Origin: an uncultured delta proteobacterium
GTDB taxonomy: Bacteria; Desulfobacterota; Binatia; Binatales; Binataceae
Direction of reading: 5' to 3'
Assembly: GCA_963842085.1 (NCBI GenBank)
Contig: CAWJET010000001.1
Location: 1,248,001-1,312,000 of the forward strand
Length of the DNA stretch: 64,000 nt
The translations under genes and the position numbers were made by a program. Below, piece after piece: positions 19,236-23,700 of this stretch. Within the stretch, counting starts at the first letter, position 1, and every line of letters starts with the position of its first letter. The notes beneath the pieces were generated by a model that did no database searches, was not told the DNA's origin, and was given only the letters and a program-made list of their open reading frames with translations.

Positions 19236-19251
19236 CGGCATGGCCGTTGCT
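19236..19251 (+). promoter_or_regulatory. Sigma54 -24/-12 promoter of the amt operon
   Basis: CGGCATGGCCGTTGCT (GG-N10-GC). Confidence 0.6.
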
Positions 19252-19333
19252 CTAGCGGCCCCTGTAGTCGCCGCTCTCTCGCTCAGAAAAGAAAACATGG
19301 CAGAACCAAAAGAACAGAGGAGAACTTTGCTCG

Positions 19334-19561
19334 ATGGGTGCGAATAGTCAACAAGGTTGGGCGCTTCTTTTGTTCCTCATCGGCTTCACATTCTTGCCGG
19401 CGGGTCTTTTCGCGCTGGGGCCAATCTTTGTGATCGCAGGCTTGGTATGCCTAATCGCATCGTTCGCCTGGTTTATGAGGATTAAGCCGCTCGAGCATCT
19501 GGAAAGCGGGAATAGTCCGGCGCAAGAGACTAATCCCGACCGAAAAGCCACTGCGGCCTAA
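19334..19561 (+). CDS. Small 2-TM membrane protein
   Basis: GAGGAG RBS; two hydrophobic segments. Confidence 0.65.
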   Translation: MGANSQQGWALLLFLIGFTFLPAGLFALGPIFVIAGLVCLIASFAWFMRIKPLEHLESGNSPAQETNPDRKATAA

Positions 19562-19589
19562 ATCTAGAGAAGACGATCGGAGGGAAACA

Positions 19590-19769
19590 ATGAGGATTCT
19601 AGGTCTGCTGGTATGCGTTCTAGGCTGGTTCATAGCCGTCTTGAGCGTGAAGGTTCCCGGAGTATACGCGCAGTTACTGGTCGCGGTCGTGGGATTCATC
19701 ATCGCTGCCTTGGGTTCAATGGCGATCGTCAACCGCTATCACCTGCAAAAGGCTAATTGGAAAGAATGA
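19590..19769 (+). CDS. Small 2-TM membrane protein (59 aa, not in the ORF track)
   Basis: GGAGG RBS; MRILGLLVCVLGWFIAVLSV...NRYHLQKANWKE*. Confidence 0.65.
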   Translation: MRILGLLVCVLGWFIAVLSVKVPGVYAQLLVAVVGFIIAALGSMAIVNRYHLQKANWKE

Positions 19770-19783
19770 GGGGAAAGCACTCG

Positions 19784-21614: not shown

Positions 21615-22112
21615 GTGGAATTGAATACGACAGCTATGCAGGAAGAGCTAACAGATCCGATGGCTGGAAAGCGCCCGACGCCCATAGTTCGCGACGCTCA
21701 CGCGTTGCTGCTGCGAGGGATTGACGCCTTGGAGCGCAATCATATCGAAGAGGCTATCGCCCTGCTGCGCCAGGCGGTCCAACTCGATGCCGAGTCTTTC
21801 CACAGCCAGCTCGCGCTCGGCATCGCGCTCACCAAGGGTCTCGAGATTCCAGCTGCCGAAGCCGCCCTGGAGGCGGCGATAAGTCTCGAACCTCGAAGCT
21901 TCTGGGCCCACTTTCGAATGGGCGAACTGTTCCAGCGCGTCGGGGTTCCAGGAAAAGCAAAAGAGGAATTCCAGACTGCGCTGGACCTGGCGCAGACCAG
22001 CGAGGAAAAGAAGATCGCCCGAGACCGCCTGGAAAGTGAACAGAAACGCGACCCAGTACGCGCGTGGCGGCCAGACTTCGCCGGCTTGTTGCGTAGAAAG
22101 AAGCGGAAGTGA
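21615..22112 (+). CDS. Tetratricopeptide-repeat protein
   Basis: Three TPR-like repeats (EEAIALLRQAVQLD, AAISLEPRSFWAHFRMG). Confidence 0.8.
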   Translation: MELNTTAMQEELTDPMAGKRPTPIVRDAHALLLRGIDALERNHIEEAIALLRQAVQLDAESFHSQLALGIALTKGLEIPAAEAALEAAISLEPRSFWAHFRMGELFQRVGVPGKAKEEFQTALDLAQTSEEKKIARDRLESEQKRDPVRAWRPDFAGLLRRKKRK

Positions 22113-22285
22113 TGGCCAACAACAGAATCACAGTTCTCGGCCGTCAGCGCTATCTAACACTCACTGCTGCAGCGGGCATAGCTGGCGCGGCGGGCGCGCT
22201 TATGTTCGGTGTGCCGGTAATTCCCGCATCGGTGGGAGTTTTAGTGGCGGTAGGATGGCTGATTTGGCGCGCGCCTTCTGAATAG
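22112..22285 (+). CDS. Small membrane protein (57 aa, not in the ORF track)
   Basis: TGATG coupling to the TPR gene; Ala/Gly/Val-rich hydrophobic hairpin. Confidence 0.55.
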
Positions 22286-22317
22286 GGCTCGACAATCGGA
22301 ATGCGAATGGGGAAGCA

Positions 22318-22656
22318 ATGAAGAAAATCGAAGCGATCATCAAACCCTTTACCTTGGACTCTGTAAAGCAGGAGCTTCAAAGCCTTGGTATCACGGGCAT
22401 GACAGTCTACGAGGTGAAGGGCTTTGGCCGTCAGAAGGGCCACACGGAGATGTATCGTGGCTCTGAATATGTAGTCGATTTCCTTCCGAAACTTAAGCTT
22501 GAGCTCGTGGTTAAAGACGATCAGTACGAACACGTGATCGATGCGATCAAGCTCAAAGCTCATACCGGGAAGATCGGCGACGGCAAGATATTCGTGACCG
22601 ACCTGAAGGATGTCATTCGAATCCGCACCAACGAACACGGCAACGACGCGATCTGA
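22318..22656 (+). CDS. glnK: Nitrogen regulatory protein PII (GlnK-like by linkage to amt)
   Basis: [24 protein letters not shown] (Tyr51), [14 protein letters not shown]. Confidence 0.93.
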
Positions 22657-22689
22657 GTCTCGGTTCGTCCATTTTGAGCCGGTCTGCCG

Positions 22690-23700
22690 ATGGTCTATGG
22701 CTTAGGAGTAACGCTAGTCGTCGTCTTGTTGGGCCCGGTGATGTTCGAGCCGATCGGACAGAACATCGAGATGTTCTTTCTAGTCGTCGGCGCCTTTGCT
22801 TCCGCTATCAGTGGGCAATGGGGACACGATCTGCTTCACGCAGCACTCACCGAACCGATCGCCTTGACGATCGCGGTTCTGGTCTTTGGCGTGGTCATGC
22901 GCGTGACGCGACCTTGGCTCGACCAGGGGGTGAAACGACTGGTGCAGGTCGTCGATCCGCGATGGATCTATTTCGCTTTGATCATAGTTTTGGGACTGCT
23001 TTCGAGCGTCATCACTGCGGTAATCGCGGCCCTGGTCTTGGTCGAAGCGATTGCTTTGCTGAAGCTTGATCGCCGCAGCGAGATAGCAGCCGTCGTGCTG
23101 GCTTGCTTTGCGATCGGCTTGGGCGCCGCACTTACCCCGGTCGGCGAACCTCTCGGCACGATAGCGATCGCGGCGCTGAAGACGGACTTCTGGTACCTCG
23201 CGCGACTTTTGGGGCCAATGGTCGTTACCGGCATCGCGATCGTTGGAATTTTCAGTCTGTTCCTGCCGGCGAAGTACGGACACTCACTGAAAGCTGACGC
23301 CCACACGGAGAATTGGTCCGAGATTTTCTTTCGCGCAGGGAAAGTTTATCTGTTTGTCGCGGGACTGGTTGGACTTTCGTGGGGACTGCGCCCGCTCGTC
23401 GACGCCTACATCAGCCACTTGCCGCAGGGTGTATTGTTTTGGCTGAACTCGATTTCAGCGGTCGTCGACAACGCCACGCTCACTGCCGCCGAGATTGGCC
23501 CCTCGCTGTCGACCGCGCAGCAGCGCGGTGTGCTGATGGGTCTCTTGATCAGCGGTGGCATGCTTATTCCTGGCAACATTCCCAACATCGTAGCAGCCGG
23601 GCGTTTGGGAATTTCGAGCCGCGAATGGGCTCGTGTTGGATTGGTAGCCGGGGTTCCACTAATGGCGCTCTGCTTCGCCGCTCTCTATTTGATGGCATGA
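22690..23700 (+). CDS. DUF1646-family putative cation transporter
   Basis: GAALTPVGEPL, NSISAVVDNATLTAAEI, SGGMLIPGNIPNI; multiple TM segments. Confidence 0.85.
   Translation: MVYGLGVTLVVVLLGPVMFEPIGQNIEMFFLVVGAFASAISGQWGHDLLHAALTEPIALTIAVLVFGVVMRVTRPWLDQGVKRLVQVVDPRWIYFALIIVLGLLSSVITAVIAALVLVEAIALLKLDRRSEIAAVVLACFAIGLGAALTPVGEPLGTIAIAALKTDFWYLARLLGPMVVTGIAIVGIFSLFLPAKYGHSLKADAHTENWSEIFFRAGKVYLFVAGLVGLSWGLRPLVDAYISHLPQGVLFWLNSISAVVDNATLTAAEIGPSLSTAQQRGVLMGLLISGGMLIPGNIPNIVAAGRLGISSREWARVGLVAGVPLMALCFAALYLMA

Follow-up and report, generated by a model that had tools for sequence, protein, structure and literature searches.

A conserved set of microproteins and a TPR protein accompanies one clade of Amt ammonium transporters in Binatota and other soil lineages

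Introduction

Ammonium transporters (Amts) rank among the channels studied in most depth, and their known partners in bacteria are the PII protein GlnK and, in sensor Amts, fused transducer domains. An operon within a stretch of 64,000 nucleotides (nt) of contig CAWJET010000001.1, hereafter the window, raises the question of whether one Amt clade has recruited further partners: its Amt gene is embedded among four small open reading frames (ORFs) for membrane microproteins, which we call m75, m59, m30 and m58, together with genes for a tetratricopeptide-repeat (TPR) protein and a PII protein. Related contigs carry the names Candidatus Binatus or Binataceae, placing the organism in the phylum Binatota. 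Seven DNA sequencing runs from two studies contain most of this stretch, and two of the runs may be its source; no RNA run is listed as containing it. An initial annotation of this DNA had proposed a multi-subunit Amt complex with accessory peptides, possibly with an altered substrate or a sensory role, controlled by an adjacent two-component pair. Here, we find that m75, m59, the TPR gene and m58 co-occur strictly with one Amt clade, and that these four and the Amt form a core set conserved in more than 100 other loci. Because the microproteins are tied to this clade and m75 is predicted to bind Amt, a multi-subunit Amt complex is the best reading of the locus: an operon under nitrogen control whose product, a specialised ammonium transporter, would work as a membrane complex with its accessory set, a reading to which we assign a probability of roughly 55%. 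We regard the microproteins and the TPR protein as probable subunits of this transporter that have so far gone undescribed.

The Amt operon and its small reading frames

We read the parts of the operon on the plus strand of the window from its ORFs and from Pfam and NCBIfam scans. The genes follow the order m75, m59, Amt, m30, TPR, m58, PII, DUF1646 and an activator-like AAA+/HTH gene. The first seven are as follows; the last two are given below with the regulatory features.

19334..19561, plus strand: m75, 75 amino acids (aa), two hydrophobic helices, GGAG 10 nt upstream
19590..19769, plus strand: m59, 59 aa, two helices, GGAGGG upstream
19784..21496, plus strand: Amt, 570 aa, PF00909
21513..21605, plus strand: m30, 30 aa, one helix, AAGGAG 6 nt upstream
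21615..22112, plus strand: TPR protein, matched by TPR models of Pfam and NCBIfam; start uncertain (GTG 21615, ATG 21636 or ATG 21660)
22109..22285, plus strand: m58, two-helix hairpin; its GTG overlaps the TPR stop (GTGA), with ATG 22112 as an alternative start
22318..22656, plus strand: PII, PF00543, E 1.2e-33

Strong Shine-Dalgarno sites precede m75, m59 and m30. A terminator scan of the locus returned nine sites against 6.3 +/- 2.7 in shuffled sequence and therefore gives no sign of an internal terminator. All parts listed in the initial annotation (promoter, small ORFs, Amt, TPR, PII and DUF1646) were found where it had placed them, with small corrections; its operon ended at DUF1646, but the operon runs on into the overlapping activator-like gene (23697-24779).

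Conservation of the small open reading frames

Short frames of this kind could be chance frames in G+C-rich DNA, or could encode independent membrane proteins that are co-transcribed with Amt. In favour of this explanation, 9 kb of the window contain 118 ORFs of at least 25 aa, and in Pfam-A and NCBIfam no family model reaches its cut-off on m75, m59, m30 or m58: the sole Pfam match of m75 is NfeD_membrane, at 24.5 bits against a cut-off of 26, and the NCBIfam matches of the four microproteins all fall far below cut-off. The comparison with close relatives argues in the opposite direction. For this, 10 kb around the TPR orthologues of eight genomes were compared with the window, giving nine loci; one of these, G018 (locus L037), supplies one row of nine in the microprotein alignments and in the table of substitution ratios, and the other eight rows agree.

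In all nine loci, m75, m59, m30 and m58 form intact frames that hardly vary in length and follow one order, m30 measuring exactly 30 codons in each. Silent-site differences from the window are saturated (proportion of differing silent sites, pS, 0.51-0.79). Within the genus and relative to the window, the ratio of nonsynonymous to synonymous proportions (pN/pS) is 0.22-0.43 for m75, 0.18-0.52 for m59, 0.18-0.40 for m30 and 0.24-0.74 for m58, alongside 0.22-0.45 for the TPR gene, 0.03-0.29 for PII and 0.10-0.14 for Amt. Length, frame, order and residues are thus conserved despite the saturation of silent sites. Further evidence against chance comes from the wider survey described below, in which the same order recurs in more than 100 independent loci, matches to hidden Markov models (HMMs) reach 1e-39, and both m75-m59 fusions and coupled start and stop codons occur. 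An origin as chance frames or as independent passengers, which we regard as extremely improbable, is already contradicted by these observations; m75, m59, m30, m58 and the TPR gene are genuine genes under purifying selection. The initial annotation had staked its proposal on the conservation of these small ORFs, and they proved intact and syntenic in nine of nine loci, with amino-acid changes restrained.

The strongest conservation of the microproteins lies in their cytoplasmic tails and in the N-terminus of m75, rather than in the membrane helices. Specifically, m75 combines a conserved MGANxxQGW N-terminus with a YRIKPLE cytoplasmic tail, m59 has the tail N-x-A-H/Y-L-K-x-A-I-W-K/R, m30 the tail KPGKSIFDK, and m58 a GAPxIP hairpin turn. 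The TPR protein is cytoplasmic, without signal peptide or membrane helix, and has a conserved KRPTPIVRD stretch near its N-terminus and a basic C-terminal tail. The N-terminus of m75 (19334-19360), M-G/A-A-N-S-x-Q, is near-invariant across the whole family and predicted to touch Amt; it resembles the eukaryotic N-myristoylation motif. Profile-profile comparison detects no relation between m75 and m59 (probability 0.8%), and we do not treat them as paralogues. The likeness of m30 to KdpF, drawn in the initial annotation, holds in shape but not in sequence: the 46-aa frame holding m30 matches no Pfam family at E<=0.01, and m30 itself matches no KdpF model at E<=0.1 in NCBIfam.

Co-occurrence with one Amt clade

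A scan of the contigs of species-representative genomes with the m75 alignment yielded 30 loci, which were scored by HMMs and tblastn. The order m75, m59, Amt is found in 29 of them, from Binatota and a few Acidobacteriota, with strong HMM matches; the thirtieth, L068, is a weak m75-only match (E 0.003). The TPR gene follows in all 29 loci, m58 in 28 and m30 in 27, the two Terriglobia loci being those from which m30 is missing. PII lies downstream in 25 loci, directly upstream in three and elsewhere in one. At the G020 locus (L032 / L059), the matches to Amt, to the regulator and to the activator-like gene are each spread over two to four frames, which would reflect either a decaying copy or assembly errors.

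At the level of proteins, a profile search of 1.84 billion representative sequences matched m75 to 100 of them at E<=1e-3 and to 24 at E<=1e-10, delineating a family of roughly 55-80 aa with the N-terminus M-G/A-A-N-x-x-Q and the tail K-x-K-P-L/W-E. The most distant m75 subfamily was then used to scan soil metagenome contigs, from which 80 loci were kept out of 177 confirmed stretches. In this set, m59 comes after m75 in 79 loci, the remaining contig ending too early; Amt is next in 65 of the 79, and the other 14 contigs end within 300 nt. The metagenome Amts (52-74% identity) have the same N-terminal extension; three of the 65 lie below the 60% identity line as partial N-terminal matches (52-59%) and are counted as present. 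PII is directly upstream in 53 loci. Thirteen loci leave 700 nt or more beyond Amt, and in 10 of these tblastn detects TPR there; a homologous TPR ORF with a PWRDPH-T/S-VSP stretch is present in 11 of the 11 metagenome loci listed, with an m58-like hairpin next in most. No m30 was found in this divergent group, and m30 is lineage-restricted. The check set out in the initial annotation, whether the microproteins recur at homologous Amt genes, thereby gives a positive answer for 29 of the 30 loci from genomes and 79 of the 80 from metagenomes.

The association is with this Amt clade in particular. Among 301 evenly drawn Acidobacteriota genomes, m75 occurs in four and an Amt of at least 70% identity in three, all of which carry m75; the next best Amt has 58% identity. 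In G282, the fourth genome with m75, the m75-m59 pair precedes an Amt of 48% identity, whose match is divided among several frames. Plain amt-PII loci, devoid of microproteins and TPR, house four sister Amts of 51-56% identity. Within the source genome, which has three Amt genes and two PII genes, neither of the other two Amts has m75 or m59 within 1.5 kb, and the PII of the operon is the only one that adjoins an Amt. This PII protein is covered by PF00543 over residues 1-106 and has a T-loop with Tyr51, a residue whose role in PII proteins is known.

Physical links between the components

Gene fusion connects m75 with m59. The two domains are united in one protein in six of 100 cluster representatives. 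Two of the six are clean fusions of 129 and 163 aa, another two are truncated (P0061, P0066), and the last two look frameshifted (P0015, P0062). In genomic DNA, a fused m75-m59 open frame stands directly before the Amt gene of the Acidobacteriota genome G175, where locus L157 (G175:C50) shows a single four-helix ORF at about 1450-1884 on the minus strand of the locus. Several metagenome proteins, P0090 and P0073 among them, show the m75-m59 fusion as well. A link of another kind joins the TPR gene with m58: the TPR stop and the m58 start overlap (ATGA or GTGA) in 8 of 10 distant loci as well as in the window.

We further predicted the structure of a complex of three chains, namely residues 36-570 of Amt as a monomer, m59 and m75, with m75 as the scored partner and with in-house alignments. 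The m75-Amt scores were 0.82, 0.82 and 0.79, compared with 0.00 for the best of three controls, in one of which m75 was kept and Amt replaced. In a benchmark of this score mark, 116 of 157 complexes of known structure passed, as did 2 of 215 mismatched pairs; these counts apply only roughly here, where custom alignments and three chains were used. At least 75% of contacts are shared between the runs, and the predicted local distance difference test (pLDDT) value of the partner is at least 71. In the predicted interface, m75 residues 1-3, 7-27 and 44-54 contact Amt residues 159-167, 207-210, 246-258 and 526-547. The first and third of these Amt segments belong to helices 2 and 4, the second to a loop, and the last to the end of helix 11 and the C-terminal region. 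We know of no solved complex between an Amt and a microprotein, so the high score is unlikely to stem from the memory of the predictor. Binding of m75 to Amt is thus supported by the modelling. A separate AlphaFold2 model of the whole Amt, from a 34-row alignment, reached a mean pLDDT of 55, with the N-terminal extension below 45, and served neither for a claim nor for a fold search.

Do these partners regulate the transporter, or do they only help to build it? The small proteins might be assembly or stability factors, or lipid-facing fillers like KdpF and CydX with no regulatory part, and the TPR protein and m58 might form a separate chaperone-like unit for the biogenesis of the N-extended Amt. 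The evidence from co-occurrence and binding supports this explanation as well as it supports the transporter complex with tuning subunits. Purely stabilising small subunits are the commonest known case (KdpF, CydX), and TPR proteins often act in assembly; the present one has weak matches to PilW-, LapB- and SycD-type models in NCBIfam. However, the tails in the cytoplasm and the N-terminus of m75 are more strongly conserved than the membrane helices, and the tails are predicted to lie on the C-terminal regulatory region of Amt, an arrangement that fits regulation better than simple packing. We consider a solely structural role unlikely.

Regulatory features and neighbouring genes

The genes and sites that flank the core set in the window are listed here, all on the plus strand.

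17271..18383, plus strand: histidine kinase, HisKA_3 and HATPase_c (Pfam), about five membrane helices, without a periplasmic domain
18380..19015, plus strand: NarL/LuxR-type response regulator, Response_reg and GerE; its start overlaps the kinase stop
19236..19251, plus strand: sigma-54-type -24/-12 element, cGGCAT-N5-TTGCT, read from the sequence, 98 nt 5' of the m75 start
22690..23700, plus strand: DUF1646 membrane protein, putative cation transporter, PF07854, E 3.5e-97
23697..24779, plus strand: activator-like AAA+/HTH gene, no sensor domain; its start overlaps the DUF1646 stop (ATGA)

The -24/-12 element lies in the 318-nt spacer between the response regulator and m75, and no inverted repeats were found in the spacer at 19000-19340. 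The sigma-54 promoter of the initial annotation is present and recurs: across 30 sequences, the window and 29 loci, 19 have such an element within 260 nt upstream of m75, where we estimate about 0.05 per sequence by chance, and the other 11 have none within 900 nt upstream. Upstream of PII in the metagenome group, the element stands at chance level (2 of 32), so the predicted sigma-54 control is limited to Binataceae and would be a feature of that family.

Downstream, the activator-like gene is present in 11 of the 29 genome loci. Judged from its motifs, its product is hardly the activator of the operon promoter. When aligned to ZraR (1OJL), it reads RNSLAAL in place of GAFTGA and LDN in place of the Walker B LDE. 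Both the GAFTGA motif and the Walker B glutamate are lost in eight of eight Binatus-type copies (the window and seven loci) and in one 44%-identical relative; the copies near related modules in L063, L066, L159 and L161 keep GAF(S/T)(G/D)A and LDE. Since the protein is without GAFTGA and carries LDN for LDE, the activator of the promoter must be encoded elsewhere, and the degenerate protein itself may act as a repressor or as a sigma-70-type activator, or may serve as a poison subunit. A NarL/LuxR-type regulator alone cannot open a sigma-54 promoter either. For the control by the adjacent two-component pair that had been proposed, the distribution is mixed: a kinase lies upstream on the same strand in 17 and a regulator upstream in 18 of the 29 genome loci, but a regulator match upstream on the same strand occurs in only 1 of the 80 metagenome loci. 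The kinase has weak NarX/MacS/MadS-type matches in NCBIfam. At L054, positions 2680-6553, two tandem kinase-regulator pairs lie upstream of the module.

DUF1646 accompanies the module in 23 of the 29 genome loci, all with the Binataceae-type order; proteins of this family are predicted as Na+/H+ antiporters in the available part of PMC9337991. An Rfam scan of 17000-26000 returned a single match, a weak c-di-GMP-I-GGC riboswitch at 22630-22692 between PII and DUF1646, which is at chance level (19.4 bits against a gathering score of 59, E 0.73) and most likely due to chance. On the 3' side of the operon, 25014-27648 hold a universal stress protein gene and an amino-acid-permease-type gene of 684 aa with a long C-terminal extension; the permease-type gene also adjoins the module in L045, L049 and L065.

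The Amt protein: extension, pore and sensor signature

Relatives place the start of Amt at ATG 19784 (MLIRINRS...), rather than at the listed TTG 19757, which would give a 579-aa frame. The protein matches PF00909 at E 2e-102 over positions 2-399 of 399, beginning at residue 124 of the 579-aa frame, and TIGR00836 at 356.9 bits against a cut-off of 343.3. Its architecture comprises a signal peptide ending in AQA, a Pro/Ala-rich linker, a conserved periplasmic stretch, 11 helices and a short C-terminal region. The signal-like, Pro/Ala-rich N-terminal extension reported in the initial annotation therefore stands, with its start moved to ATG 19784. The periplasmic stretch after the linker (residues 36-110; 19889-20110) reads KGDPxGxLTG...D..V.D.KKGLT...NQxGQN; it is found also in sister Amts without microproteins, whose alignments start at residues 46-83, and no family model covers it.

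For the pore, residue names of Sd-Amt1 given in the available part of PMC11152129 were mapped through the alignment to the 570-aa numbering, with invariance assessed over 34 clade sequences. Trp139, Ser225 and Phe98 of Sd-Amt1 correspond to W269, S353 and F228 of the present Amt, and Phe221, His169 and His323 to F349, H297 and H456. The outer Trp and Ser, the Phe gate pair and the twin pore His are thus all kept, and all six are invariant in the 34 clade members. Given these canonical pore residues, the altered substrate entertained in the initial annotation is not indicated.

The best solved relatives of the Amt are 6EU6 (Ks-Amt5, E 1e-57) and 8QJ3 (Sd-Amt1, 8.6e-52), followed by Af-Amt1 (9.6e-48) and AmtB (about 2e-33). 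Sensor Amts (AmR), in work by Pfluger from 2018 and 2024, reportedly bind ammonium without conducting it. Of ten residues of the sensor signature that were compared, seven are kept in the present Amt, namely Gln22, Phe25, Glu29, Asn45, Thr104, Ser/Thr107 and the exit-narrowing Asn269; among these, Glu29, Asn45, Thr104 and Ser/Thr107 are the ligands of the N1 ammonium site. The other three are replaced, each invariably in the clade: Asp48 of the N2 site by Val, its partner Tyr119 by Phe, and the switch residue Lys44 by Met. There is no fused transducer, as the Amt ends about 40 residues past helix 11 and Pfam shows no second domain.

These features bear on a different explanation, a split ammonium receptor, in which Amt would act mainly as a sensor like Ks-Amt5 or Sd-Amt1. 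With no transducer fused to it, the Amt would relay ammonium occupancy by way of the microproteins and the TPR protein; the receiver would be PII, the degenerate activator-like protein, or the adjacent regulator with its intramembrane-type kinase. That sensor Amts are the best solved relatives is consistent with this, as are the seven kept signature residues, which are invariant in the 34 clade members, and the two other Amts of the genome, which could handle uptake. The kinase, too, would need a membrane partner because it has no periplasmic domain, and kinase and regulator recur upstream in more than half of the genome loci (17 and 18 of 29). Against a receptor stand the three invariant replacements, the want of a fused transducer, and the 80 metagenome loci, in which the kinase-regulator pair is not part of the module. 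Moreover, the 'cluster 2' signature of the sensor Amts is shared, according to the available part of PMC11152129, by proven transporters such as plant AMT1. Taken together, the sensory role suggested initially keeps its N1 ligands and loses the N2 Asp, the Tyr partner, the switch Lys and any fused transducer. On these residues, a receptor or dual role of the Amt itself is possible, and a split receptor working through the whole module appears improbable to us. We are still more sceptical of its most elaborate form, a new ammonium signalling machine in which an Amt trimer with the N1 site, m75 and m59 (with m30 in Binatota) and an m58-anchored TPR protein would act through PII on gene control; if true, this would be a receptor architecture built of microproteins, in abundant soil bacteria.

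A working model of the transporter complex

Returning to the multi-subunit transporter complex, the controlled prediction suggests how m75 would sit on the channel. Its first helix would pack on Amt helices 2 and 4, and its conserved N-terminus and RIKPLE tail would rest on the C-terminal region in the cytoplasm and on the end of Amt helix 11. The corresponding region of AmtB is coupled to gating and belongs to the face where PII docks. m59 would adjoin m75, since the two are fused in some organisms, and m58 would be the membrane anchor of the TPR protein, since their genes are translationally coupled. The TPR protein could then read the conserved cytoplasmic tails of the microproteins and Amt, and the accessory set as a whole may tune Amt activity, or its plugging by the GlnK-type PII, according to nitrogen status. 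In Binataceae, the operon, which also carries the putative DUF1646 cation transporter and the degenerate activator-like regulator, would be read from the sigma-54 promoter.

Several points weigh against this model. The confident m75 contacts listed are with Amt alone, and the model gives no support to a contact between m75 and m59. The m75 site is predicted on an Amt monomer. Two of the fused proteins, P0015 and P0062, look like frameshift or read-through artefacts. Constraint is weakest on m58, with pN/pS of 0.68-0.88 against the three most distant loci. The module is also patchy: close TPR orthologues occur in just 7 of 36 other genomes of the genus, which makes it an accessory trait, and a distant one occurs in 1 of 24 genomes of the other families of the class. 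Finally, a gating role for PII and the TPR protein is pure inference. The multi-subunit complex of the initial annotation thus gains conserved partners and a predicted m75-Amt interface, with the binding being in silico, for m75 alone and on an Amt monomer.

Relation to known systems and significance

Small one- or two-helix subunits of 30-75 aa that are encoded in or beside a transporter operon and bind the large subunit on its lipid-facing side are known from KdpF-KdpABC, AcrZ-AcrB, MgtS-MgtA and CydX. The microproteins of the present operon resemble these in size, in having one or two helices, and in their encoding in or beside the operon of a transporter. However, none of the known cases belongs to an Amt, m30 matches no KdpF model, and here several distinct microproteins and a soluble TPR partner make up one conserved set.

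With AmtB-GlnK of Escherichia coli, the locus has in common a PF00909 channel whose pore residues are identical, a PII protein encoded in the operon, and nitrogen control of the sigma-54 type, and the plain AmtB-GlnK arrangement is exactly that of the sister clade of this Amt. In contrast, Amt is here constantly accompanied by a TPR gene and by three or four genes for microproteins, and the Amt itself has a conserved periplasmic extension of about 75 residues after the signal peptide. It also carries the 'cluster 2' residues (Glu, Asn, Thr, Thr, Asn), which AmtB is without according to the available part of PMC11152129. The sensor Amts Ks-Amt5 (6EU6) and Sd-Amt1 (8QJ3) are its best solved relatives and share the N1 ligands and the exit Asn; unlike them, the present Amt has no fused kinase or diguanylate cyclase, and its N2 Asp, Tyr and switch Lys are replaced.

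The closest described precedent for small proteins with an effect on an Amt comes from Methanosarcina mazei, where the 61-aa protein sP36 binds both AmtB1 and GlnK1 and mediates GlnK1-AmtB1 binding, according to the available part of PMC10714827. As envisaged for the present microproteins, sP36 is small, targets an Amt and mediates its plugging by PII. As described there, sP36 is soluble and becomes membrane-bound on nitrogen upshift, whereas the present microproteins are integral hairpins encoded in the Amt operon together with a TPR protein. In the literature accessible to us on small-protein partners of Amts, sP36 is the sole described case found, and literature on Binatota and ammonium transporters, or on small or accessory Amt proteins, yielded no description of the genes reported here. 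The module is a real, conserved accessory set for one Amt clade, and is apparently new to description.

Three of the ORFs are shorter than 60 aa, and the case illustrates what gene callers miss. For m75, the prediction offers concrete contacts, between its residues 1-27 and 44-54 on one side and the C-terminal region and helices 2 and 4 of Amt on the other. The Amt clade that holds these genes lives in uncultured soil lineages, comprising Binatota, some Acidobacteriota and unplaced soil contigs, and a fixed set of unannotated microproteins and a TPR protein around it would add a layer to ammonium transport or sensing.

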